NCBI GenBank assembly: GCA_018652335.1
Contig: JABICI010000023.1
Location: 1 to 48,703, forward strand
Length of the DNA: 48,703 nucleotides
Source of the DNA: Flavobacteriales bacterium
Lineage (GTDB): Bacteria; Bacteroidota; Bacteroidia; Flavobacteriales; BACL11
Direction: 5' to 3'
The notes beneath the pieces are model-generated. The model worked only from the letters and a program-made list of their open reading frames with translations. It had not been told where the DNA came from and made no database searches. Shown piece by piece: positions 720 to 32,102 of this stretch (positions within the stretch are counted from its first letter, which is position 1; the number at the start of each line of letters is the position of its first letter). The translations under genes and the position numbers were made by a program.

Positions 720-2696
720 TTAATAATTAAGCAAATCCTTAAGCTGTTTCTCAAATCTAGATTTAGGTAAAAACTGATCTTCAAGATTAATAGAGAAAGG
801 TACAGGTGTATCTAATGATGAAGATCTTTTTACAGGCGCATCTAAAAACTTAAAACATTTATCAGAAACTAAAGAAGCTATATCTGCTCCAAATCCACCT
901 AACATGCAATCTTCATGTAAAACGATAGCTCTTCCTGTTTTCTTTACTGATTCAATAATCGTATTTTCATCAAGAGGAATTAATGTTCTCAAGTCAATTA
1001 AATCAGCTGAAATATCATTATTTCGATTCAACACATCCAAAGCCCAATGAACTCCCATCCCATAAGAAATAATAGTAACATCACATCCAGATCTTATTAG
1101 CTTAGCTTTGCCAAGCTCAATGGTAAAATAATCATCGGATACTAAGCCAGAAACACTTCTGTAAAGAGCCTTGTGTTCAAAAAACATCACAGGGTTTGGA
1201 TCATTAATAGAAGAAATAAGTAAACCCTTAGCATCTTCTGGAAAAGCAGGATAAACAACTTTTAAACCTGGAGTATGAGTAAACCAAGCTTCATTAGATT
1301 GTGAATGAAAAGGTCCTGCTCCTACTCCAGCCCCAGTTGGCATTCTTAAAACAACATCAACATTCTCACCCCATCTATAATGTGTTTTAGCTAAATTATT
1401 TACAACGGGATTAAATCCGGAAGTTACAAAGTCAGCAAATTGCATTTCCATAACAGCTTTGAAATTATTTATAGATAATCCAAGGGATGCGCTTACAATA
1501 GCAGATTCACATATAGGTGTATTTCTAACTCTTTCTTTTCCAAATAAATTAACAAATCCATCAGTAATCTTAAAGACCCCCCCATATTCTGCAATATCCT
1601 GACCCAACAAAACTAAGTTATCATGTTTAAACATTGATTGCTTTAAACCATCTGAAATTGCATCAACTAATCGTTTCTCTGATTTTTTATCTGAAGGCGG
1701 AATTGACAAAGAAGTATAAGAACAAAAGATATCCCTGAGTTCATCATTAACATTTGGCATTATCGAGGGTTCTTTATCAGCTTGTTCCCATGATAAATTA
1801 ATTTCATTCTTGATTTTTTCTTTATAAAAACTTACATCATCTAAGTTAATAATTGACTCATCAATAAGAAAAGATTCAAAGTTATTGATTGGATCTAGTT
1901 TTTGCCATTTTTTCATTAATTTATCAGGAACATATTTAGTTCCGGAAGCCTCTTCATGACCTCTCATTCTAAAAGTCATACATTCAATAATAAATGGCCT
2001 TGCTTTTTTTGAAATTTTATTTTTAATCTTTTTAACAGTATTGTAGACATCTAATATATTATTTCCATCAATCGTATGAGCCTCTATTCCATAACCAATT
2101 CCCTTATCTGCAAAATTTTTACATCTAAACTGTTCAGAACTTGGCGTTGAAAGACCATACCCATTATTTTCTATTATAAAAATAACTGGTAAATCCCAAA
2201 CAGCCGCAACATTTAAAGCTTCATGAAAATCCCCTTCACTTGTCGCACCATCTCCAGTAAAAACAGCTGTAACCTTATTATTTTTTTTTAGTAAATTTCC
2301 TAACGCAATTCCATCAGCAACACCAAGTTGAGGTCCTAAGTGTGATATCATTCCAATGATATGATTTTTTTTTGAACCAAAATGAAATGACCTATCTCTC
2401 CCCTTTGTAAAACCATTTGCTTTTCCTTGAAATTGAGAGAAAAGTCTTCTAAATTCAATATTTTTTGTAGTAAAAACACCGAGATTTCTATGCATCGGCA
2501 AAATAAATTCATCTTCATCTAGTGCAGATGTTACTCCGACTGAAATAGCTTCTTGTCCAATACCTGAAAACCACTTTGATATTTTACCTTGCCTTAAAAG
2601 AATAAGCATTTTTTCCTCAATTAATCTAGGAACAAGAAGTGATTTGTATAAATCAACAAGATTAGTATCTGATAATCCTTTTCTATTAAATTGCAT
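720..2696 (-). CDS. 2-oxoacid (probably branched-chain, 2-oxoisovalerate) dehydrogenase E1, fused alpha/beta subunit
   Basis: TPP-binding GDGATSEGDFHE...NN motif, RMRGHEE, and beta-half motifs GQDIAEYGGVF, NTPICE, EMQFADF, HSQSNEAWF. Confidence 0.92.
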   Translation of the reverse strand: MQFNRKGLSDTNLVDLYKSLLVPRLIEEKMLILLRQGKISKWFSGIGQEAISVGVTSALDEDEFILPMHRNLGVFTTKNIEFRRLFSQFQGKANGFTKGRDRSFHFGSKKNHIIGMISHLGPQLGVADGIALGNLLKKNNKVTAVFTGDGATSEGDFHEALNVAAVWDLPVIFIIENNGYGLSTPSSEQFRCKNFADKGIGYGIEAHTIDGNNILDVYNTVKKIKNKISKKARPFIIECMTFRMRGHEEASGTKYVPDKLMKKWQKLDPINNFESFLIDESIINLDDVSFYKEKIKNEINLSWEQADKEPSIMPNVNDELRDIFCSYTSLSIPPSDKKSEKRLVDAISDGLKQSMFKHDNLVLLGQDIAEYGGVFKITDGFVNLFGKERVRNTPICESAIVSASLGLSINNFKAVMEMQFADFVTSGFNPVVNNLAKTHYRWGENVDVVLRMPTGAGVGAGPFHSQSNEAWFTHTPGLKVVYPAFPEDAKGLLISSINDPNPVMFFEHKALYRSVSGLVSDDYFTIELGKAKLIRSGCDVTIISYGMGVHWALDVLNRNNDISADLIDLRTLIPLDENTIIESVKKTGRAIVLHEDCMLGGFGADIASLVSDKCFKFLDAPVKRSSSLDTPVPFSINLEDQFLPKSRFEKQLKDLLNY

Positions 2697-2758
2697 GTTT
2701 AAATATATTTGTGGCCAAATCTAGTTAATATTTTCTTTACTTTGTTAAAAATTAATAG

Positions 2759-2869
2759 ATGAACTGGCAAGACTTAGTTGTAAGTATAATTTTGATAATT
2801 GCGATTTATTATCTTTTTAATAGATTATATAAAAAGAAAGATTGTAATGATCATAACTGTTCCTGTTAG
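2759..2869 (+). CDS. Small Cys-rich membrane peptide (FeoB-associated Cys-rich membrane protein-like), 36 aa
   Basis: Read manually: MNWQDLVVSIILIIAIYYLFNRLYKKKDCNDHNCSC*. One TM helix, a basic patch and a Cys/His tail. Its stop codon abuts the ATG at 2870. Confidence 0.75.
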   Translation: MNWQDLVVSIILIIAIYYLFNRLYKKKDCNDHNCSC

Positions 2870-4702
2870 ATGTTATTCTTACTCAACTACTTACTGAAAT
2901 TAGCAGGTTTACTTGTAATATATACTACAACTAGGATTTATTTCTTTTTGAATAATAGAATAAACTTAGAAAGTTTTTCTTATATTGATTTTGTTGAAGG
3001 AATTCGGTTTGATCTGTCAGCATTAGTTTATATTAATATTCCAATTTTAATTCTACTTTTAGTTCCAACAAAATTAAGACACAATAAGGAATATCTAAAA
3101 TTAACAAATTCTTTATTTTATATTCTAAATTTCATTTTTATTGTTTTTAATAATATTGACATTGAATATTATAGATTTACTCAAAAAAGAAGCACATTTG
3201 ATTTCATTGAGCTAATTTTACTGGGAAAAGATGCAAGAAATATTATACCACAATATTTAAGTGAATACTGGAAAATTACATTATTTACTGCAGTTCAAAT
3301 TTGGTTTCTTTTTAAAATAAATAACAAATATCAATTGTATAATAGCTCTTTAAAAAAGAATATTTTTAAAAGAATTCTGCCACTTTTACTTGGAACTTTA
3401 ATATTTATAATTTTAGCTAGAGGTGGCTTTCAATTAAAACCAATAAAACCAATAAATGCTGGAGAAATAAGCAACTCAAAAAACACATCTTTAATTCTAA
3501 ATACTCCATTTACTATTTTACATTCTTTAGATGAAAACAAATTAATATCTTATAGCTATTTTGATAAATTTGAGCTAGATAGTATTTACAAAACAACTCA
3601 TATTTTCGATAATAAAGATAATAAACCAAATATAATTATCTTAATAATGGAGAGTTACTCAAAGGAATATATTGGCTTTTACAACAAAGGAAATGGAAGT
3701 ACACCTTTTTTAGATAGTTTAATGCATCATAGTCTAGTATTTACAAATGCTTATGCAAATGGCTTGAAATCCATAGAAGCACTACCAGCTATTACAGCAT
3801 CTATCCCATCACTAATGGATGATCCATTTATTACTTCTAATTATGCTCAAAATAGTTTTGAAAGTATTGCATCATTACTTAATAAACAAGATTATAACAC
3901 ATCATTTTATCATGGTGGCTACAAAGGAACTATGGGCTTCTACAGTTTTTGCAAAAAAGCAAGATTTTCTGATTACTTTGGACTTGAAGAATATGATAAC
4001 ATTAATGATTTTGATAAAAGCTGGGGTATATATGACAAACCATTCTTCCAATATTTTGCAGAAAATGTAAACATAAAAGGAGAACCTTTCTTTAGTACTT
4101 TCTTTTCCTTAAGTTCTCATCCACCATACACTTTACCAAATGATTATTTAAAAGAAATTGACGAGGAAAGTAGAATTGGAATTAGAGAAACGATTTTATA
4201 TTCAGATTTTTCGATGAAAAATTTCTTTAATAATGTAAAAAATAAAAAATGGTTTAATAACACAATTTTTATAATAACAGCTGATCATACATCTGCAGAA
4301 AATTTTAATATCAAATACAATAATAAAATTGGTAGATATACAATACCATTAATTATTTATGCTCCTGACAGTTCATTTAAAGGAATAAATAGTAATGTGG
4401 TACAGCAAATTGACATCATGCCTACAGTTTTAGATATAATCGGATATAATAAGCCATTTTTCTCATTTGGAAAGTCAATGTTTTCAGAAAATAATTGGGC
4501 AATCAACTATATTCAGAATGAATATTGTTTAATAAAAGATAATTCAATTATCTTAAGTAAAACTGAAAATTATAGTTCTTATAAAGATTGGAGTTTAACT
4601 GATACAAACATGATTAATGTTAATAACATCAATTTATTAAAAGCAATAAAGCAAGATTACAACTACAGGATGATAAATAATAAAATTAAATATGAAAACT
4701 AG
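2870..4702 (+). CDS. LTA synthase-family (LtaS/OpgB-like) sulfatase-fold phosphotransferase
   Basis: About five N-terminal TM segments (GIRFDLSAL, ARGG), PNIIILIMES, NGLKSIEAL, SSHPPY, ITADH, QQIDIMPT. Confidence 0.88.
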   Translation: MLFLLNYLLKLAGLLVIYTTTRIYFFLNNRINLESFSYIDFVEGIRFDLSALVYINIPILILLLVPTKLRHNKEYLKLTNSLFYILNFIFIVFNNIDIEYYRFTQKRSTFDFIELILLGKDARNIIPQYLSEYWKITLFTAVQIWFLFKINNKYQLYNSSLKKNIFKRILPLLLGTLIFIILARGGFQLKPIKPINAGEISNSKNTSLILNTPFTILHSLDENKLISYSYFDKFELDSIYKTTHIFDNKDNKPNIIILIMESYSKEYIGFYNKGNGSTPFLDSLMHHSLVFTNAYANGLKSIEALPAITASIPSLMDDPFITSNYAQNSFESIASLLNKQDYNTSFYHGGYKGTMGFYSFCKKARFSDYFGLEEYDNINDFDKSWGIYDKPFFQYFAENVNIKGEPFFSTFFSLSSHPPYTLPNDYLKEIDEESRIGIRETILYSDFSMKNFFNNVKNKKWFNNTIFIITADHTSAENFNIKYNNKIGRYTIPLIIYAPDSSFKGINSNVVQQIDIMPTVLDIIGYNKPFFSFGKSMFSENNWAINYIQNEYCLIKDNSIILSKTENYSSYKDWSLTDTNMINVNNINLLKAIKQDYNYRMINNKIKYEN

Positions 4703-5549
4703 ATTTATTATTAATCCAATTTCTGGTACTGGAAAACAAATAGGAATTGAACATTATATTTCAAAAAAATTTGACAATTATGATCTTTATTTCACTGAGC
4801 ATTCAGGTCACGCAAAAATTTTAGCTAAACAAGCAGTGTGTGAGAATATAAATTTATTAGTTATAATCGGTGGAGATGGTACTATTAATGAATGCTTAGA
4901 ACCGCTTGTGAACTCAAACACAATTCTATTCACAATACCATGCGGTTCTGGAAATGGATTTGCTAAACATTTAGCAATTAATACTAATATTAAAAAAGCT
5001 CTAACTAGTATTAAAGATTCATCAATAAAATTAGTTGATGTTGGATATGTTAATAATAAACCATTTATTAATGTTGCAGGAATAGGTTTTGATGCGCATA
5101 TAGCAAAATTATTCTCTAAATCTATTAAAAGAGGACTTTTAAGCTACGTACTTATTATTTTAAAAGAATTTTTTTACAGTGCTAATGAGTATCAAATAGA
5201 GTTTGAAAATATTAGTAAAAAAGTATACGCATATATGATTTCATTTGCTAACTCAAGTCAATTTGGCAACAACGTTAAAATTTCTCCTTTAGCTAAAATA
5301 AACGACGGATTAATTGATTTTGTTATTGTGAAAAAGTTTCCTAAATGGAAAATACTATTTGTATTGTACAAGCTTTTAAATGGATCAATTCATAATTCAA
5401 GTTTTGTAGAAATCATTAGATGTAATAAAATGAAGATTAATTCTAATAATTATTTAGTGCATCTAGATGGAGAACCTCATATATTTAATGAGCAAATCAA
5501 TATAACTATTTTAAAAAAATCAATAAAAGTATTAACTCCAAATGGCTAA
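4692..5549 (+). CDS. Diacylglycerol/lipid kinase family protein (YegS/DagK)
   Basis: IINPISG, GGDGTINE, PCGSGNGFA, GIGFDA and HLDGE motifs. Confidence 0.92.
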   Translation: MKTRFIINPISGTGKQIGIEHYISKKFDNYDLYFTEHSGHAKILAKQAVCENINLLVIIGGDGTINECLEPLVNSNTILFTIPCGSGNGFAKHLAINTNIKKALTSIKDSSIKLVDVGYVNNKPFINVAGIGFDAHIAKLFSKSIKRGLLSYVLIILKEFFYSANEYQIEFENISKKVYAYMISFANSSQFGNNVKISPLAKINDGLIDFVIVKKFPKWKILFVLYKLLNGSIHNSSFVEIIRCNKMKINSNNYLVHLDGEPHIFNEQINITILKKSIKVLTPNG

Positions 5550-5877
5550 AAAAAATAAACGAAAAGGAATAATGTATTCAACTAATCCTGATTATGACTA
5601 TGAATATGAAGACAGTGAACAAGAGACGATTTTAAATGATATGCAACTATTACATGTGCATATTGATAAGCATAGAGCTGGTAAAACTGCTGTTATCATA
5701 AAAGGTTTCATTGGCACTAAAAATGATTTAATTTCTCTTAGTAAAATATTAAAAAAGAATTGTGGTGTAGGTGGTAGTGTTAAAAATCAAGAAATAATTA
5801 TTCAAGGTAATTTTAGAGAAAAGATTATGACTATTCTTAACAATGAAGGATATAAAACTAAAAGAATAGGTGGATAA
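5542..5877 (+). CDS. yciH: Translation initiation factor SUI1/YciH family protein
   Basis: MYSTNPD start typical of Bacteroidota, RAGKTAVIIKGF, LKKNCGVGGSVK, IIIQG, terminal KRIGG. Confidence 0.9.
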   Translation: MAKKNKRKGIMYSTNPDYDYEYEDSEQETILNDMQLLHVHIDKHRAGKTAVIIKGFIGTKNDLISLSKILKKNCGVGGSVKNQEIIIQGNFREKIMTILNNEGYKTKRIGG

Positions 5878-26840: not shown

Positions 26841-27395
26841 ATGAAAAAAAAAATATTAACAATAACATTAGGCATCTTTATTTTAACAGCTAACGCACAG
26901 ATTGAGAAACTAGCAGGACCAAGACTTGGAATAACATTTATTGGTGCAGGACCAGTTGCAGATTTCTTACATGAAGGGTTTGATTTTAATGAAAGTGATA
27001 AATATGGAAGTACTGGATCTGCTATGACAACACAATACGGATGGCAATGGGAATCAAGATTTGCAGATGGAGGTGGCGATGTAGTTGGAATAGTAGAATG
27101 GATGTTTCTAGTATCAGGAATGGAACAAGGAAAATTTTTACCATCAGCAACTTCAATAATAGGAGTTAGAAAAGGAAATGGCTATGAAGTAGGTGTTGGT
27201 CCGAATCTATCATTATCTGGAATTGGAATGGTATTTGCAGTTGGTTATAATTTTAAATCTGGTAATTTAAATTTACCAGTGAATATTGCGTTTATGCCAG
27301 GAAGACAATTAACAGGTGAGGCTGATGGTCAAGAATATAAATACAGCTCTGGTGAAAGAATATCACTTATGATTGGATTTAATATGAGTAAATAA
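26841..27395 (+). CDS. Hypothetical exported protein, probable small outer-membrane beta-barrel
   Basis: Signal peptide ending ANA-Q; alternating beta-strand pattern (GPRLGITF, QYGWQWE, EVGVGPNLS, RISLMIGFN). Confidence 0.7.
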   Translation: MKKKILTITLGIFILTANAQIEKLAGPRLGITFIGAGPVADFLHEGFDFNESDKYGSTGSAMTTQYGWQWESRFADGGGDVVGIVEWMFLVSGMEQGKFLPSATSIIGVRKGNGYEVGVGPNLSLSGIGMVFAVGYNFKSGNLNLPVNIAFMPGRQLTGEADGQEYKYSSGERISLMIGFNMSK

Positions 27396-27405
27396 AAAAA
27401 TAATC

Positions 27406-27744
27406 TTAGTAGTCATGATCTCCATGATCTTCACAATGAATTTCATATTGTGAATTAGCACTTCCTGGCCCATATTCACCTGGAAGTAGAGGAATTCCGT
27501 CGCTGGAGTATAGTGTGTCTGTAACAGTGTACACATAACTTGATGATTCTGCATCTCTTAATTCATCTTCACAAAAATCTTCTCCTCCTGATGCATTTAG
27601 AATTTCCCATTGAGTCTCTGATTTATCAGGCAGGGCAATATGACACTCGTGACAAAGCTCAGCATCATCATCTTTAGAGCAAGAAGTCATACTGCTAATT
27701 GCTAAAAATGCAACACCCATTACTAAATAATTTACTTTTTTCAT
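27406..27744 (-). CDS. Surface lipoprotein with CxxCH motif and His/Asp-rich tail (putative metal-binding TBDR partner)
   Basis: Lipobox MTSC then SKDDD (Bacteroidota lipoprotein export signal); CHECH; tail IHCEDHGDHDY. Confidence 0.8.
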   Translation of the reverse strand: MKKVNYLVMGVAFLAISSMTSCSKDDDAELCHECHIALPDKSETQWEILNASGGEDFCEDELRDAESSSYVYTVTDTLYSSDGIPLLPGEYGPGSANSQYEIHCEDHGDHDY

Positions 27745-27762
27745 TTTTATATATATTTAATT

Positions 27763-27814
27763 AATACTGACACCTTAAGAGGTGTTTCGCTTCTTTAAAG
27801 CTCATCAGAGTATT
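27763..27814 (-). ncRNA. Hammerhead ribozyme, type I; predicted cleavage after GUC (between 27769 and 27768)
   Basis: Minus strand AAUACU-CUGAUGA-GCUU-UAAAG-AAGC-GAA-ACACCU-CUUA-AGGUGU-C-AGUAUU. Stem I AAUACU/AGUAUU, stem II GCUU/AAGC and stem III ACACCU/AGGUGU are all perfect Watson-Crick, and every conserved core nucleotide is present. Confidence 0.93.
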
Positions 27815-30040
27815 TTAAAATTCATATTTTAAATTAATATTGAAAAATCTTCCAGGATTAGGTACTCCACCAGCAACTCCTCTTACTCTTGATATATGAG
27901 GTGAATATACTTCATTAAATAAGTTGTTTAAACTTAATACACAATGTAATTTATCATTAAATTTTAATCCTAGTTGTAGATTTATAACATTGTATTCTGG
28001 AGTTAAAGATTCATATTCAGCGTAACTATTTTGCTGAAATTTATAAACATGATAAATAGATATATAATCAAATTTATATTTAATAATTTTTTCATATTTA
28101 TTAAAATCAAATAAAACTTTTGTTTTAATACTATTTGCAGGCACTAGAGCCAAACCGTACACATCATCTTTATTTTTAGTATGTAAAAAAGAATAAGATT
28201 GCTCAATATGTAAATTATGTAATTGATGAGGATGATAGTGTAAATTGAATTCAACACCTTTAATTTCAACTTTTTCATATTGTGTGTAATTATACACCTT
28301 GTAACTATCTTGAATTGAGTCTGTTGGAGTTATTGAAATAAAATCAGATATATATTGTGCAAATGGATTTAAAACAATCCCTATATGTTCATTAGACCAT
28401 TGATATTTAAAATCAAACTGATTAGCATATTCAATTTTTAATTGATTATCTCCAATTTCATACCTGTTTGTACCATGATGAACACCATCTGAAAAAAGCT
28501 CAGAAAAATGCGGTGCTCTATACGCTCCAGAATATGTAAATCTTAAAATATGATCAATGAATTTATAATAAAATCCTGTAGATAGACTTGTATTAGAAAA
28601 GACTTGATCATAATTAATATTGAATTTTTCGCTCTGATCATTAACCTTCAAATTTTTATAATCGTAGCGAATACCTGAATTAAATCCAAAATCATTTTTT
28701 TCATAATCAACTATAAAATAAGGACCTACATTAAATGACGAGGCATCTGGAACTAATCTATCTATTTCATTATTCTTATTATTAAGTATTGTAATTTGAG
28801 AACCAAAATTGACAGTAATACTTCCTAAATTATATCTAACACTAGGAGATATCTGCGTATTAGATAAATCAATATCAAACGCTGGTTTAGTCCACTTTTC
28901 CCACTCTTGTAAATTATTTATAAAATGACCAACATATAAGTTAAATTTTAAGTTATTCTGAAGGAAGATAGACTCATAAATAATCAGCTGATTGTTAACT
29001 ACCTGATTAGGTCTAGATGTATCATAGTCAGTTGAGAAATCTAAAGATGATGAAGTAAGATCAATAAGATTAGACTCTTGAGGATCGCCATGAATATGGC
29101 CCGGAATTCCTGGTGCTTCGGTATGCCTATGATATCTAAAAATATTTTGCCAGTTCTTAAGCCTATGTGCTAATGAAAATTTTATAGCATTTTGTTTGAA
29201 TCTTGAATTAAACAAATACCAACTATTGGGTAAGCGATAATCTGAAGAAATTGCATACTGACCATACAAATTAAAATAAAAATTCTTTTCACCCCACTTA
29301 ATTCCAAATTGATTACTACTTAAATAGCTACTATTATTAAATTTCGTAGAAAGGAAACCTTTTATTTTTTTACTATCAACAAAAGGATGATCTTTAAAGT
29401 ATAATACACCTCCAATAGCTTCTGAGCCATACTTCAATGCACTAGAACCCTTGATCAATTCTACTTCATTTAAACCTAAATCTGTAAATCCTATACCATG
29501 ATCATTTGCCCATTGCTGATTATTTATTTGCATACCATTTAAATAAGTAACAACACGCATTCCAGATAATCCCCTAACAACTACTTTTTGTATACCTAAA
29601 CCAGATGAGATCATATCTACTCCATTTAACTGAGAAATACTCTCAACCATAGAGTTAGATTCTAAAAAATTAAGTGATTTCTTTTCAATATTTGTTAACT
29701 TACTATTTCCTAATTTATTATGGGTACTTGATATACCAACTTCATCTAAACTAACATGAAGTTTATTAAGAACAATCTCCAATGTCATATTAGATGTATA
29801 TTTAATTTTTTTGGTTGAATATCCATTCTTGTAAAAATTTATATAACTATTATTGGGAATATCGGATTCAGTGACAAACTCACCATTTCCATCACTATAC
29901 AATAGTATATTTTGATCAGATAGATATATATCAACCTGATTTATTGGTTTGTTATTATCATCTAAGATAATACCTATAGTTTGAGAATAAATTGTAAAAA
30001 CATTCATCACAATTAGTGATGAAAAAAGTAACTTTTTCAT
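27815..30040 (-). CDS. TonB-dependent receptor, probable metal uptake type
   Basis: Signal peptide, N-terminal extension, plug (VVRGLSGMRV...QQWANDHG, ELIKGSSALKYGSEAIGGV), His motifs GHIHG and ELFSDGVHHGT, terminal NPGRFFNINLKYEF. Confidence 0.92.
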   Translation of the reverse strand: MKKLLFSSLIVMNVFTIYSQTIGIILDDNNKPINQVDIYLSDQNILLYSDGNGEFVTESDIPNNSYINFYKNGYSTKKIKYTSNMTLEIVLNKLHVSLDEVGISSTHNKLGNSKLTNIEKKSLNFLESNSMVESISQLNGVDMISSGLGIQKVVVRGLSGMRVVTYLNGMQINNQQWANDHGIGFTDLGLNEVELIKGSSALKYGSEAIGGVLYFKDHPFVDSKKIKGFLSTKFNNSSYLSSNQFGIKWGEKNFYFNLYGQYAISSDYRLPNSWYLFNSRFKQNAIKFSLAHRLKNWQNIFRYHRHTEAPGIPGHIHGDPQESNLIDLTSSSLDFSTDYDTSRPNQVVNNQLIIYESIFLQNNLKFNLYVGHFINNLQEWEKWTKPAFDIDLSNTQISPSVRYNLGSITVNFGSQITILNNKNNEIDRLVPDASSFNVGPYFIVDYEKNDFGFNSGIRYDYKNLKVNDQSEKFNINYDQVFSNTSLSTGFYYKFIDHILRFTYSGAYRAPHFSELFSDGVHHGTNRYEIGDNQLKIEYANQFDFKYQWSNEHIGIVLNPFAQYISDFISITPTDSIQDSYKVYNYTQYEKVEIKGVEFNLHYHPHQLHNLHIEQSYSFLHTKNKDDVYGLALVPANSIKTKVLFDFNKYEKIIKYKFDYISIYHVYKFQQNSYAEYESLTPEYNVINLQLGLKFNDKLHCVLSLNNLFNEVYSPHISRVRGVAGGVPNPGRFFNINLKYEF

Positions 30041-30057
30041 ATAATAATAAATAAAGT

Positions 30058-30084
30058 AAAAAAACGCTTAACTATATAGTTAAG
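30058..30084 (-). terminator. Terminator/attenuator-like hairpin between the upstream ORF and the TBDR
   Basis: Perfect 18-bp palindrome CTTAACTATATAGTTAAG (30067-30084) followed on the minus strand by CG-TTTTTTT. Confidence 0.6.
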
Positions 30085-30120
30085 AGGTGAAATCATACTT
30101 AGTCATGTAAGACTATTTAT

Positions 30121-30528
30121 CTATATTATGAAGGGGGGAGATTTATTTTGAAAGCTAGTAAAATCAGTTAAGTTTAATGAATCAAATGATTGATGCATTA
30201 CTGATGTTAAAGATTTAAAAACAAGATTTGAATATTTATCTAAAAAAGCAAATTTTACATTAGAAAAATGATCACAAATATTGCATTTTTCTAAAGTATT
30301 TGCAAGATGAGAGTCATGTGAACATTCTTTTTCAAAATTTATTTTTTGAAAAAGAGCCTCACAAAATAAAACATTTATTTCTTCATCATGATGATCACAA
30401 CAATAGTCTTGATCATTTTGATTTATTGAATGACTATGAAAAGAGAACAAAGATAATGAACCAAATAAATAAATTAAAAGTAATGTACCGCTTAAAATTC
30501 TATTATGTAAGATTATACTTTTTTTCAT
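30121..30528 (-). CDS. His/Cys-rich upstream ORF of the TBDR (CruR/DUF2946-like leader protein); start re-called to ATG at 30528 or 30531
   Basis: Basic N-terminus and hydrophobic segment, FHSHS, CCDHHD, CSHDSH, CNICDH, C-terminal NKSPPFII. Confidence 0.72.
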   Translation of the reverse strand: MKKSIILHNRILSGTLLLIYLFGSLSLFSFHSHSINQNDQDYCCDHHDEEINVLFCEALFQKINFEKECSHDSHLANTLEKCNICDHFSNVKFAFLDKYSNLVFKSLTSVMHQSFDSLNLTDFTSFQNKSPPFII

Positions 30529-30532
30529 CATG

Positions 30533-30540
30533 CAAAAATA
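30533..30540 (-). promoter_or_regulatory. -7 promoter element TATTTTTG directly before ATGATG of the upstream ORF
   Basis: Minus strand TATTTTTG-C-ATG-ATG-AAA. Confidence 0.6.
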
Positions 30541-30647
30541 TAATTCTAAATTCATATTTTCTTAAAAACTAAACTAAAATTGAAATTTATTTATTTAAAA
30601 AAATTTTCTAGTGCAATTAAGATTGCTTACTTTTAAAAAAAAAAATC

Positions 30648-32102
30648 ATGAAAAGAATTTTAACAATCTGTATTGCATTAGTATTTGCTTTATCCTCTCA
30701 TGCAACTCATTTAATGGGAGGTCAAATAACAACAACTTATATTTCTTCTGATACATCTGGCTCCCATTATTTTTTAGAATTAGATTTATATAGAGATACA
30801 TTAGGCATAAATGTTGATACGATACAAGAAATAGAAATATGGTCATTAGATGTAATGGGCAATTACAATCTATTATCAACCAATACATTAACTTTGGGTA
30901 CTTCAGGCGCACTAGCAACCATGTCATCTGCTTATGGTGTCGAAATTTATCATTTTACTGATTCAATTATATTCCCTGCTAATGGAAATTATATTGTGAA
31001 ATGGAAAAATTGTTGCAGAAATAATGCTATAATAAATATGGCTACTCCAGGATCTGAAACAATGACTCTTCTAGCATATGTTAATGTCAATAATCTATCC
31101 CCAAATTCATCTCCAACATTTCTAGCGCCACCAATTATTTATCTTCCAACTAATAATATTTGGCAATACAATCCATTACCATTTGATATAGATGGTGATT
31201 CGTTAGTATGGAATTTAACAGTTCCATTATCAGCATCAAGTAACCCTCCAATACCAGACTCAGTAACAGGTTACGAATTTCTTTCTGACACTATACTTTA
31301 TTCAAACTCTTCAGCACCTTTTGCAGTAAATAATTTTACAGGAGAAATAACTTGGAGTCCAAAAATGATAGGAAATTTTGTTGCTTCATTAACAATACAA
31401 GAATATAGGAACGGAACTCTTATTGGGGCAATGAATAGAGATATGCAATTCGTTGTTGTTGCTGATTCAACAAACTTCACTCCAATTATTTCTAATATGC
31501 AAAGTTTACCAACAAATAATCTTGGAAATCCCTACGTTAAAATTGCACCTGGACAAAACTATCAACTTCATTTACTTGCATCTGATCAAGACTTAAATGA
31601 TGTAATTAGTATGGATGCATTTGGAGAGCCTTTTAGCTTATCAAATGGGGCAAGCTTCAGTTATTCTTTGACGGGAAATAATAACGAGATAGATGGTGTT
31701 TTCTCTTGGACACCAGATATAAATCATCTTCGCGAAAATCCATATCTTGTTGTATTTAGGACAACTGATAATTTCTTTTATTTTGATGAGACTGTTCAAT
31801 TTGAAGTAACGTACAATACATCTATTAATGAGGATCAAAATAATTTATTTGTTCAAACTATTTATCCTAATCCAGCAAGAAACTCCTTTACACTACCTAT
31901 TCTAATAGAAAAAAACAATAACATTAAAATAGACATTTATAATAATCTTGGGATTAAAGTCTCTAGTAGAAACTTAGAACTAAGTGCGGGTTCACATCTG
32001 ATAGTCAATAACTTTAATCTTAATAATGGACAATATTTTGTAAATATTACAGATGAATTTGGAACTATCAAAACAACAAAGAAATTACTCATATTAAAAT
32101 AA
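30648..32102 (+). CDS. Secreted protein with THxxGGxI N-terminal domain, Ig/cadherin-like modules and T9SS type A CTD
   Basis: SHA-THLMGGQIT, LYRD, CCRN, NSSPTF, DIDGDSL, TGEITWSP, RDMQF; CTD IYPNP...IYNNLG...GQYFV...KKLLILK. Confidence 0.82.
   Translation: MKRILTICIALVFALSSHATHLMGGQITTTYISSDTSGSHYFLELDLYRDTLGINVDTIQEIEIWSLDVMGNYNLLSTNTLTLGTSGALATMSSAYGVEIYHFTDSIIFPANGNYIVKWKNCCRNNAIINMATPGSETMTLLAYVNVNNLSPNSSPTFLAPPIIYLPTNNIWQYNPLPFDIDGDSLVWNLTVPLSASSNPPIPDSVTGYEFLSDTILYSNSSAPFAVNNFTGEITWSPKMIGNFVASLTIQEYRNGTLIGAMNRDMQFVVVADSTNFTPIISNMQSLPTNNLGNPYVKIAPGQNYQLHLLASDQDLNDVISMDAFGEPFSLSNGASFSYSLTGNNNEIDGVFSWTPDINHLRENPYLVVFRTTDNFFYFDETVQFEVTYNTSINEDQNNLFVQTIYPNPARNSFTLPILIEKNNNIKIDIYNNLGIKVSSRNLELSAGSHLIVNNFNLNNGQYFVNITDEFGTIKTTKKLLILK

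Follow-up and report, generated by a model that had tools for sequence, protein, structure and literature searches.

A hammerhead ribozyme conserved between a TonB-dependent receptor gene and a lipoprotein gene in a putative metal-uptake operon of marine Bacteroidota

What might a hammerhead ribozyme be doing between two protein-coding genes of a marine bacterium, and is it really there? The question is raised by a stretch of 48,703 nucleotides (nt) from a Flavobacteriales bacterium (contig JABICI010000023.1, assembly GCA_018652335.1), the whole of which is hereafter called the window. In it, an upstream open reading frame (uORF) that we call ORF-A, a gene for a TonB-dependent receptor (TBDR) and a gene for a lipoprotein follow one another on the minus strand, and a type I hammerhead lies in the second of the two spacers. 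The host is a marine member of the Bacteroidota whose genome of 1.57 Mb, in 143 contigs, has a G+C content of 29.7%, a completeness of 87.6% and a contamination of 3.57%. Its place in the Bacteroidota is also indicated by the type IX secretion sorting domain encoded beside the operon, by the promoter style and by the relatives that were found. A first-pass annotation of the window had proposed that three co-oriented, Cys/His-bearing genes form a metal-uptake system under purely post-transcriptional control, with a nascent-peptide sensor, an attenuator and a ribozyme as its working parts. In this paper, we report a comparative analysis of the locus, in which the ribozyme proved to be kept in one position in many, though not all, relatives and the sensor in front of the receptor gene to vary. 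The genes, the spacers and the ribozyme are as follows, in the coordinates of the window.

30555..30121 or 30528..30121, minus strand: ORF-A, 144 or 135 amino acids (aa); the ATG at 30528 corresponds to the start of the homologues
30120..30041, minus strand: spacer 1, from ORF-A to the TBDR gene, 80 nt
30040..27815, minus strand: TBDR gene, 741 aa; Plug and beta-barrel domains and an N-terminal CarboxypepD_reg-like domain
27814..27745, minus strand: spacer 2, from the TBDR gene to the lipoprotein gene, 70 nt; holds the type I hammerhead
27814..27763, minus strand: type I hammerhead ribozyme; its first base directly follows the TBDR stop codon
27814..27809 paired with 27768..27763, minus strand: hammerhead stem I, 6 base pairs (bp), open
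27808..27802, minus strand: hammerhead core CUGAUGA
27744..27406, minus strand: lipoprotein gene, 112 aa; lipobox ..TSC

All three genes, like every other item listed in the first-pass annotation, were found at the positions and in the orientation given there. Their Cys/His motifs are CCDHH, CSHDSH and CNIC in ORF-A, HIHGD, GVHHGT and HYHPHQLHNLH in the TBDR, and CHECH and HCEDHGDH in the lipoprotein. The open reading frames and the domain annotation of the window contain no regulator gene adjoining the operon.

Read from its 5' end, the element consists of one strand of stem I, CUGAUGA, a 4-bp stem II, GAAA, a 6-bp stem III with a 4-nt loop, UC and the second strand of stem I. It matches the published type I core (C3 U4 G5 A6 N7 G8 A9, G12 A13 A14, A15.1-U16.1 and H17), a definition taken from the available text of Perreault et al. 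2011 (PMC3088659). The predicted cut falls after C27769, between 27769 and 27768, and 24 nt 5' of the lipoprotein ATG. The window genome by itself does not lift the hammerhead above chance: one site was found with a simple type I descriptor in the 1.57-Mb genome as against 0, 1, 1, 0 and 0 in five shuffled genomes, and the fold z-scores at the site reach only -1.6 to -2.1. It is judged real because of the comparative data, that is, conservation, covariation and synteny, and not because of single-sequence statistics.

A family search for the TBDR in 68 genomes returned 24 near-full-length orthologues including that of the window (49-69% identity), a number of fragments and three to four paralogues at 27-30%. 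In all 25 loci examined, namely the 24 orthologues including the window and one fragment, the motif CUGA[U/C]GA directly follows the stop codon of the TBDR gene. When 23 of the elements were aligned with MAFFT, 95.8% of the cells were paired and compensatory changes were seen in 11 of 18 pairs, a level reached in none of 500 shuffles, and controls slid along the alignment were 28-45% paired. A covariance model built from this alignment gave one strong match (69-88 bits) per genome, always in the same place, in all 24 genomes with a TBDR orthologue; genome G040 had an additional, degenerate second copy. Model matches at about 29 bits in G059, G061 and G039 were rejected as hammerheads, with GAAA and stem III missing.

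Beyond the family, the model matched 16 of the 151 genomes in a sample of the order and none of the 150 other genomes in a sample of the class. All 10 new loci from the order have a TBDR 3' end upstream (37-60% identity) and a lipoprotein gene downstream. Intact TBDR-hammerhead-lipoprotein loci number 34 including the window, in four families (f1, f2, f8 and f9) of one order. An alignment of 34 sequences was fitted to the covariance model, a procedure that favours structure, and showed 95.1% of 597 cells paired and compensatory changes in 13 of 18 pairs (0 of 500 shuffles as high; slid controls 27-41%); the independent MAFFT alignment of 23 agrees with it. Positions C3, U4, G5, A6, G8, A9, G12, A13, A14 and U16.1 are identical in 34 of 34 sequences, N7 is a U in 32 sequences and a C in the other 2, and A15.1 and C17 are altered solely in the decayed copy L031. 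Judged by its conserved core, its covarying stems and its recurrence in the same slot in 33 further intact loci, the hammerhead that had been proposed for the second spacer is a genuine, conserved element, and one that is not confined to a single genome, as it would have been under one of the refuting outcomes named in the first-pass annotation.

The decayed copy (L031/L048, G040:C3:28995-29723) follows what remains of a TBDR gene, only the last 221 residues of which are left, and carries a G at 15.1 and a U at 17. The lipoprotein open reading frame is absent downstream, and the copy offers a natural example of the element without selection.

Having placed the ribozyme, we turn to the part of the locus in front of the receptor gene, where the following features were recorded.

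30626..30613, minus strand: imperfect palindrome GCAA-N6-TTGC, ~85 nt before the ORF-A start; one base longer than the N5 operator described below
30540..30533, minus strand: candidate TAnnTTTG -7 box, a motif match; it stops 1 nt short of the ATG at 30531 and 4 nt short of that at 30528
30285..30274, minus strand: CxxC of ORF-A
30144..30133, minus strand: KSPP of ORF-A, three codons before the stop
30084..30058, minus strand: hairpin+U7, made up of a 7-bp A/U-rich hairpin (30084..30067), CG and U7 (30064..30058)

ORF-A has no match in Pfam or NCBIfam. An alignment of 20 sequences, in which it was joined by 16 close homologues and three orthologues from the loci, shows a conserved basic N-terminus, a hydrophobic segment, His runs, an invariant Cys and CSHxSH. 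The CxxC and NKSPP motifs, the latter followed by three hydrophobic residues and the stop, are invariant in all 20, with 43 residues between CxxC and KSPP in ORF-A. A hydrophobic ..LLLIYLFGSLS.. segment after the basic N-terminus was judged by inspection to be an export signal in 20 of 20. A profile search of 1.84 billion representatives found 268 proteins at E <= 0.001, nearly all of 110-145 aa. Among the 148 profile matches listed beyond the query's own set, 142 have [KRN]xPP in the last 10 residues (141 of them [KR]xPP), with KSPP in 49, RGPP in 44, KGPP in 32, RAPP in 10, KDPP in 4, KAPP in 2 and NRPP in 1. The spacing from CxxC to this motif is 43 in 102 of the matches, 44 in 21, 45 in 10 and 42 in 4 (42-45 in 137).

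A distant homology of ORF-A to DUF2946 proteins is supported by a global hhalign comparison of a broad ORF-A profile with Bacteroidota PF11162 proteins, which gave 96.7% and an E-value of 4.6e-10 over 123 columns and set CxxC on CxxC and PP on PP. A local hhalign comparison of ORF-A with DUF2946 covered the N-terminal 28 columns only (82.5%), and a third homology search (query P0246) returned the query alone. PF11162 was found in 30 genomes of a 401-genome sample of the phylum at E <= 0.01, 4 of them over the cut-off; 11 of the proteins end in RAPP or RGPP, and several are encoded just 5' of TBDR-like genes or of a COG0523-like gene (the COG0523 name being given by eye). The spacer from the uORF to the TBDR gene measures 55-100 nt in the 9 uORF loci compared. 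By its architecture, ORF-A is best described as an exported protein of an already described kind and not as a new device. It shares the architecture of CruR and CutF, two nascent-peptide sensors with which it is compared in the closing paragraphs, and for that reason the proposed sensor uORF was a good guess at a mechanism already in print: plausible from its CxxC, its KSPP, their spacing and the TBDR gene downstream, but not a new mechanism.

Spacer 1 folds at -12.4 kcal/mol (z = -1.7). Each of the 9 uORF-locus spacers folds into some hairpin, the U-tract is found in the window only, and the sequence of the window hairpin is common to a single genus among these loci. A terminator scan misses the hairpin because it needs 3 G-C pairs. 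The hairpin+U7 may be a weak intrinsic terminator or a pause site, specific to the lineage. The hairpin+U7 that the first-pass annotation took for an attenuator is present in spacer 1 but is not conserved, the U-tract being absent from the 8 other uORF loci compared. An anti-terminator pairing of the two spacer-1 hairpins was considered and dropped, at most 4 bp being found by eye.

The -7 box before ORF-A would imply a leaderless or very-short-leader mRNA, and the same arrangement of box and start codon is seen in relatives L007 and L013. Two further TAnnTTTG boxes lie inside genes, at 30455 and 28076, and by our own arithmetic the total is about the chance frequency for this composition; the single -7 promoter of the first-pass annotation stands as one box upstream of ORF-A, but not as the only box in the operon. 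No TAnnTTTG was found in spacer 1 or mid-spacer before the lipoprotein gene by this motif search, which leaves other promoter types possible. A scan for sigma-70-type promoters was set aside: it performed at chance (33 found as against 30.5 expected), and its model is not applicable to the Bacteroidota.

Upstream of the TBDR gene, the 34 intact hammerhead loci carry the following.

CruR/CutF-like uORF: 10 loci
Fur-family gene abutting the TBDR gene on the same strand: 7 loci
Divergent Fur-family gene with two palindromes: 1 locus
MerC-like gene after palindromes: 2 loci
Palindrome directly before the TBDR gene: 12 loci
Unreadable, contig ends: 2 loci

A Fur-family operator and/or gene therefore replaces the uORF in 22 of the 32 assessable hammerhead loci. 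The operator is the palindrome GCAA-N5-TTGC, often extended to AACGCAAC..GTTGCGTT, and it frequently overlaps or precedes a TAnnTTTG box. In the window, where the palindrome at 30626..30613 has six bases at its centre, its function is doubtful; a proper N5 palindrome lies upstream of the uORF in L009. No Fur-type palindrome was found between the uORF and the TBDR gene in the 9 uORF loci compared. Two Fur-family proteins are encoded in the window genome. Since a uORF serves some lineages and a Fur-type gene or operator serves others, the sensors of this module appear to be interchangeable. Against this background, the claim that no transcription-factor gene is adjacent is true of the window but fails in its relatives, and purely post-transcriptional control is not general. 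The co-occurrence of parts expected by the first-pass annotation among TBDR orthologues was borne out for the hammerhead and the lipoprotein gene in all 34 intact loci, but for the uORF in 10 and, among the 9 uORF loci compared, for the U-tract in the window only.

Several regions encountered in this survey merit description. In L050, L051, L053, L055, L056 and L058 (f8 and f2), the first ATG of the Fur-family frame lies inside the operator, and the operator in turn directly follows a TAnnTTTG box, an arrangement that points to a leaderless message under autoregulation or else to translation from a later start codon. In L014 and L018 (G042 and G040), two operator palindromes precede a MerC-family gene that lies 7 nt upstream of the TBDR gene; the inner-membrane step of the uptake route may be the work of MerC-like proteins. 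In the window genome, contig C77 (~1375-5729) carries a MerC-like gene divergent from a Fur-family gene, with the operator palindrome, here GCAAC-CAA-GTTGC, and a TAGTTTTG box between the two and an ABC-2-type transporter (ATPase and two permeases) after the Fur-family gene. These genes are probably the regulator that acts on the TBDR operon in relatives, together with a part of its regulon. On contig C71 of the same genome (2.5 kb, ~1549-2500), a pirin-like gene is accompanied by a AACGCAAC..TTTGCGTT palindrome, by a TAAGTTTG box and by ~170 nt from the start of a TBDR gene. Genomes of genus g7 (L010, L004) have nearly the same sequence at their locus. Either this contig is a contaminant, or it holds a second TBDR copy truncated by the contig end. 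Beside the operon, the plus strand of the window encodes a 184-aa signal-peptide protein with no family match (26841-27395), convergent with the lipoprotein gene across a gap of 10 nt, and a 484-aa protein whose C terminus is a type IX secretion sorting domain (30648-32102), divergent from ORF-A. Neither gene is conserved beside the operon in the relatives inspected.

The TBDR itself, with its invariant His clusters, is assigned by profile and structure matches to the heme/ZnuD branch. It scores 97.4 against NF038289 (ZnuD; cut-off 950) and 146.7 against TonB-hemin (cut-off 316.85), with models of heme-receptor subfamilies highest, and its nearest solved chain is ZnuD (4rdr, E 1.2e-12), followed by PhuR. 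The assignment goes no further than the branch because the ZnuD cut-off is missed, ZnuD being the nearest solved chain. The lipoprotein has as its invariant residues the lipobox Cys, CxxCH, a third Cys, H-C-E-x-H and one further His, and ends in a His/Asp tail. It belongs to no Pfam family and has two sub-threshold N-terminal NCBIfam matches only; all 121 homologues are unnamed or 'hypothetical', and the Atlas clusters are likewise unnamed. An AlphaFold2 model from 24 sequences has a mean predicted local distance difference test (pLDDT) value of 77, with 57 residues at 90 or more, and Foldseek found no PDB match at E <= 0.001. The lipoprotein is thus an unnamed family with a confidently predicted core and, at that threshold, no solved fold relative.

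Co-folding of the lipoprotein with the TBDR scored 0.52 against 0.00 for the best control, the runs giving 0.00, 0.52 and 0.52 with a contact agreement of at least 0% and a partner pLDDT of at least 67. Fifty-eight of 80 solved complexes reached the mark used, as did 2 of 110 mismatched pairs; these counts are only rough, as our own alignments were used. A score at the mark and no higher than 0.60 was given by only 7 of the 80 solved complexes, and by both passing mismatches. The models weakly support a contact between lipoprotein and receptor.

As for the metal, zinc appears the most likely, at about even chances, with copper a clearly less probable candidate and other metals or heme, taken together, on a level with copper. 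The points for zinc are ZnuD as the nearest chain, Fur-family control, the link with an ABC-2 transporter and the His/Asp tails of the lipoproteins. The Fur-family gene that abuts the TBDR gene in 7 loci, and is divergent from it in 1, was counted toward metal uptake.

These results bring us to the function of the locus. We consider it probable that this is a TonB-dependent transition-metal operon in which the hammerhead cuts a dicistronic RNA and the sensor at the front end can be swapped. The constant core would be the TBDR gene, the type I hammerhead and the lipoprotein gene, and the front end would be interchangeable between lineages. In the window genome and 9 relatives, the front end would be a CutF/CruR-like exported peptide. 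Transcription, to judge from the position of the -7 box, would start at or near the ORF-A start codon and take in all three genes. A ribosome on ORF-A would pause at KSPP for as long as metal on the emerging CxxC/His segment dictates, by analogy with CruR and CutF, and the pausing would in turn set how frequently polymerase reads through into the TBDR gene past the hairpin+U7, a likely termination or pause point in this genome. In most other relatives, a Fur-family repressor and a palindromic operator would take this place.

The later steps would belong to the constant core. Once the TBDR gene and the next 52 nt have been transcribed, the hammerhead would fold and cut in vivo 24 nt before the lipoprotein ATG, giving a TBDR mRNA that ends in the folded ribozyme with a 2',3'-cyclic phosphate and a lipoprotein mRNA that begins with a 5'-OH and a short A/U-rich leader. 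The chemistry of hammerheads, which leaves a 5'-OH on the downstream product, is established. The most likely purpose would be to free each message from the other in its stability and its translation, with the effect that receptor and lipoprotein could be made in differing amounts from one promoter. In most ribozyme-free relatives, the two genes are 8-25 nt apart, a distance that would suit coupled translation. With a ribozyme in between, coupling would therefore give way to independence, which is the simplest explanation of why the element is retained.

RNA data bear on the locus to a limited extent. A search turned up 24 runs, and contigs of 4 marine metatranscriptome runs were aligned to 27300-30700. 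The lipoprotein gene is covered in 4 of 4 runs, along with pieces of the TBDR gene and ORF-A, although such coverage does not show transcription. The lipoprotein contigs end variously at 27683-27739, and none of the 4 runs has a contig over 27756-27869. One contig (30041-30286) crosses the hairpin+U7 and was not counted as bridging because it extends fewer than 31 letters past it.

A number of points weigh against the reading of a cleaved dicistronic RNA behind a swappable, metal-responsive front end. The hammerhead falls below the Rfam gathering cut-offs (26.1 as against 56.3 for RAGATH-1-hammerhead, 22.3 as against 52 for HH9), and RF00163 has no match at the site. No pairing partner could be assigned for a tertiary contact, whether between loop II and stem I or as a pseudoknot, and stem I has only 6 bp; what loop II does have is one invariant U and one near-invariant A (32 of 34), and invariant A residues stand either side of stem I. 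The box at 28076, in the 3' part of the TBDR gene, could be an internal promoter of the lipoprotein gene. At the front end, PF11162 has no match in the window genome at E <= 10, and none in ORF-A or 3 orthologues; 2 of 50 relatives match it at E <= 0.01, and 5 of 10 RAPP-ending relatives score 11.7-18.3 bits, below the cut-off of 23.7, though they align end to end on the profile. NCBIfam does not resolve the subtype of the Fur-family proteins. With regard to the metal, a CxxC sensor of the CruR/CutF type argues by analogy for copper, and heme could be indicated by the lipoprotein CxxCH together with the heme-receptor models, which score highest and yet far below cut-off; CxxCH is the classical attachment motif of heme c.

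To these points must be added the relatives in which the ribozyme is missing. The lipoprotein family is wider than the ribozyme, being found in 38 of the 151 order genomes. Eighteen loci from 17 lipoprotein-bearing genomes without a model match contained no hammerhead with the filters off, and in 15 of the 18 a TBDR gene (27-52% identity) is followed by the lipoprotein gene after 8-107 nt without a ribozyme. The protein pair can thus work without the ribozyme, as these 15 related loci indicate. A maximum-likelihood tree of the C-terminal 216 residues of the TBDR, with 52 rows (34 with ribozyme, 15 without and 3 paralogues), placed 33 of the 34 ribozyme-bearing rows in one group whose sister is a ribozyme-free f8 locus. 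The remaining one, G187, is nested in a ribozyme-free f9 clade, for which at least two gains or losses are needed; presence and absence differ here inside one genus (G187 as against G180). The tree indicates that the TBDR-lipoprotein pair is older than the ribozyme, which on the same evidence was gained, or was repeatedly lost, and was then retained under selection in one large branch. L095 (G147:C42:13500-14500), the nearest ribozyme-free relative of the hammerhead clade, has a 107-nt spacer with a long hairpin (GTTGAAGG..TTCTTCAAC) and no hammerhead core; this hairpin may be a replaced or an eroded element.

The source of the ribozyme may lie in phages. The stem II pattern GCUUU..AAGC occurs in 72 IMG/VR contigs (L107-L178) with 111 model matches at 30-71 bits, and neither the TBDR nor the lipoprotein is encoded on any of the 72. 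Each phage contig has between one and four hammerheads of this stem II subtype, often just 5' of gene starts. At the gathering cut-offs of Rfam, the 10 phage contigs tested yielded tRNAs only and no hammerhead (0 of 10); the whole subtype, phage and cellular, seems to be left unannotated because it lies below these cut-offs. A metagenome scan with the stem II pattern found at least 119 stretches, and among the 80 examined, 37 encode the TBDR and 35 the lipoprotein. The cellular copy has the look of a type I hammerhead domesticated from a phage-rich subtype, a direction of transfer that we infer.

How, then, do other explanations of the locus fare? The one that survives best, although we regard it as unlikely, is the full model of the first-pass annotation, which does without regulatory proteins: termination at the hairpin+U7 depends on the uORF, and the hammerhead tunes the lipoprotein. 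All its parts are in the right order in the window, the uORF fits the CruR/CutF layout, and a stem-loop or termination in the spacer is the means by which CutF and CruR act, respectively, according to the available text of the papers cited for them below. Spacer 1 of the window has no TAnnTTTG, and the stretch from uORF to TBDR gene has no Fur-type palindrome in the 9 uORF loci. However, the hairpins of these loci differ, the U-tract is unique to the window, and the window hairpin is weak, with 7 A/U-rich bp in a spacer fold of -12.4 kcal/mol (z = -1.7). There is also a palindrome before ORF-A here, albeit with N6, and an N5 copy before the uORF in L009, from which it follows that protein-level control may be layered on top; the two Fur-family proteins encoded in the window genome point the same way.

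We regard as improbable a second alternative, in which the element is a three-way-junction RNA with cleavage absent or negligible, serving as a structural 3' end, a terminator or a protein-binding site, and the lipoprotein gene has its own promoter. The scores below every Rfam cut-off and a short stem I with no identifiable tertiary contact would suit such an RNA, as would the terminator scan, which called the stem III hairpin terminator-like on the opposite strand, and the TAnnTTTG box at 28076 within the TBDR gene. Yet the 13 core positions required for catalysis do not vary among 33 intact relatives, in which the three stems change freely by compensation, and a mere hairpin or junction is unlikely because CUGAUGA, GAAA and UC would not then be constrained. 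The sole copy with core changes adjoins a decayed gene fragment, and the same subtype is multi-copy in phage contigs, like the active phage hammerheads described in the available text of PMC3088659.

A more elaborate proposal accepts cleavage and makes it the sensor: a phage-derived hammerhead, domesticated as an RNA metal gauge, would have its cleavage rate set by the imported divalent metal through the short stem I and weak bracing, and would thereby set the ratio of lipoprotein to receptor in series with the uORF or the Fur-type repressor. We think this quite improbable. Least probable is that the hammerhead is a passenger, a neutral remnant of a phage or mobile element beside the TBDR gene, for although its stem II subtype abounds in viral contigs that lack both genes and its presence varies within one genus, each genome has it as a single copy, placed without exception in the 65-110-nt slot that separates these two genes, and it is kept with an intact core and compensatory substitutions while the TBDR falls to 37-50% identity, the 1.5-kb flanks of the 34 loci showed only the TBDR gene, the lipoprotein gene and the listed upstream genes (no search having been aimed at phage or integrase genes), and neutral remnants decay, as the second copy in G040 does.

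The preferred reading, a hammerhead that cuts the message of a metal-uptake operon with a swappable sensor, would provide a rare case of a bacterial hammerhead with a fixed cellular context and a job that can be tested. A host role is directly testable here because the related gene pairs without a ribozyme and the decayed copy are natural controls. The locus would also represent a metal-uptake module that has swapped its sensor, a CruR/CutF-like nascent-peptide device in some lineages and a Fur-type repressor in others, and it would bring streamlined marine Bacteroidota, of the kind that abounds in ocean metagenomes, within the range of the uORF mechanism. For RNA annotation, the consequence is that an entire hammerhead subtype, phage and cellular, escapes the cut-offs of Rfam.

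It remains to compare the locus with known systems, beginning with its front end. CruR (Bp2923, DUF2946) of Bordetella pertussis has 145 aa, an export signal, CXXC at 90-93 and RAPP at 139-142 and heads an operon with a TonB-dependent transporter (TBDT); copper sensed by the nascent chain relieves stalling, whereupon Rho terminates transcription before the TBDT, as described in the available text of PMC9426467. ORF-A and CruR are each the first of three operon genes with the TBDT second, and both have a length of ~140 aa, an export signal, an invariant CxxC and a basic-small-Pro-Pro motif three residues from the C terminus at a fixed spacing from CxxC (43 here, 45 +/- 2 there), followed by a sizeable untranslated spacer before the TBDT. 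They differ in the motif itself, KSPP here and RAPP in CruR, in the extra invariant Cys/His positions and His runs of ORF-A, and in the spacer, which is 80 nt, A/U-rich and provided with a hairpin+U7 here whereas that of CruR is 162 nt, G+C-rich and provided with a Rho site. ORF-A also fails PF11162, the third gene encodes a lipoprotein here and PepSY_TM there, and the metal of CruR is copper.

In CutF of Rhodobacter capsulatus, copper instead strengthens stalling, which opens a spacer stem-loop over the ribosome-binding site (PMC9973294; 10.1101/2025.02.05.636593, both in their available text). ORF-A has what the published rules for CutF-like proteins ask: it is shorter than 150 aa, begins with an N-terminal signal, has PP among its final 15 residues and is followed within 1 kb by a gene on the same strand. 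A spacer stem-loop is involved in CutF control, and spacer 1 has a hairpin as well, but the hairpin here ends 26 nt before the TBDR ATG and leaves it uncovered, in contrast to the stem-loop of CutF, which covers the ribosome-binding site. Bacteroidota account for 19% (raw) of the CutF-like catalogue, in which TonB-like proteins are the second commonest neighbours, according to the available text of PMC9973294.

The receptor resembles ZnuD of Neisseria meningitidis (4rdr), its best solved-structure match, and has conserved His-rich segments. It differs in scoring only ~97 bits against a ZnuD cut-off of 950 and in being outscored by heme-receptor models, and we know of no ZnuD system with a ribozyme or with this lipoprotein. 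A likeness to Zur-regulated TBDRs lies in the Fur-family regulator and operator of the relatives and in the Fur-like gene beside an ABC-2 transporter in the window genome; ZnuK of Caulobacter, a Zur-regulated TBDR, adjoins the ABC-2 transporter genes znuGHI (PMC4176598, available text).

Finally, the hammerhead has the identical catalytic core, the three stems with stem I open and the location between genes of one transcript that are known from published type I hammerheads, and its stem II GCUUU..AAGC is shared with many phage contigs, often in several copies each. For bacterial and phage hammerheads, processing of polycistronic RNA has been proposed, with flanking prophage genes that 'are not constant' (PMC3088659), and most of those encoded in bacterial genomes are functional orphans, mostly near phage genes, for which mRNA processing is only suggested in the available text of PMC6765202 and PMC3088659. 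No paper was found that connects hammerheads either with TonB-dependent receptors or with this bacterial group, although the supplements of PMC3088659 and PMC9973294 might list the sequences. The novelty that had been suggested for the combination of parts holds in this respect, but the uORF mechanism, and CutF-like open reading frames before TonB-type genes, are already catalogued in the available text of PMC9973294. The ribozyme class and subtype and the uORF class are already known. The copy in the window and its 10 tested phage relatives differ from the hammerheads of Rfam in lying below every cut-off, and the cellular copy differs from the published type I hammerheads in being single-copy, chromosomal and tied to one gene pair. 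What is new is a hammerhead fixed in one cellular operon slot across four families, with presence and absence controls, and its combination with a CruR/CutF-like sensor.

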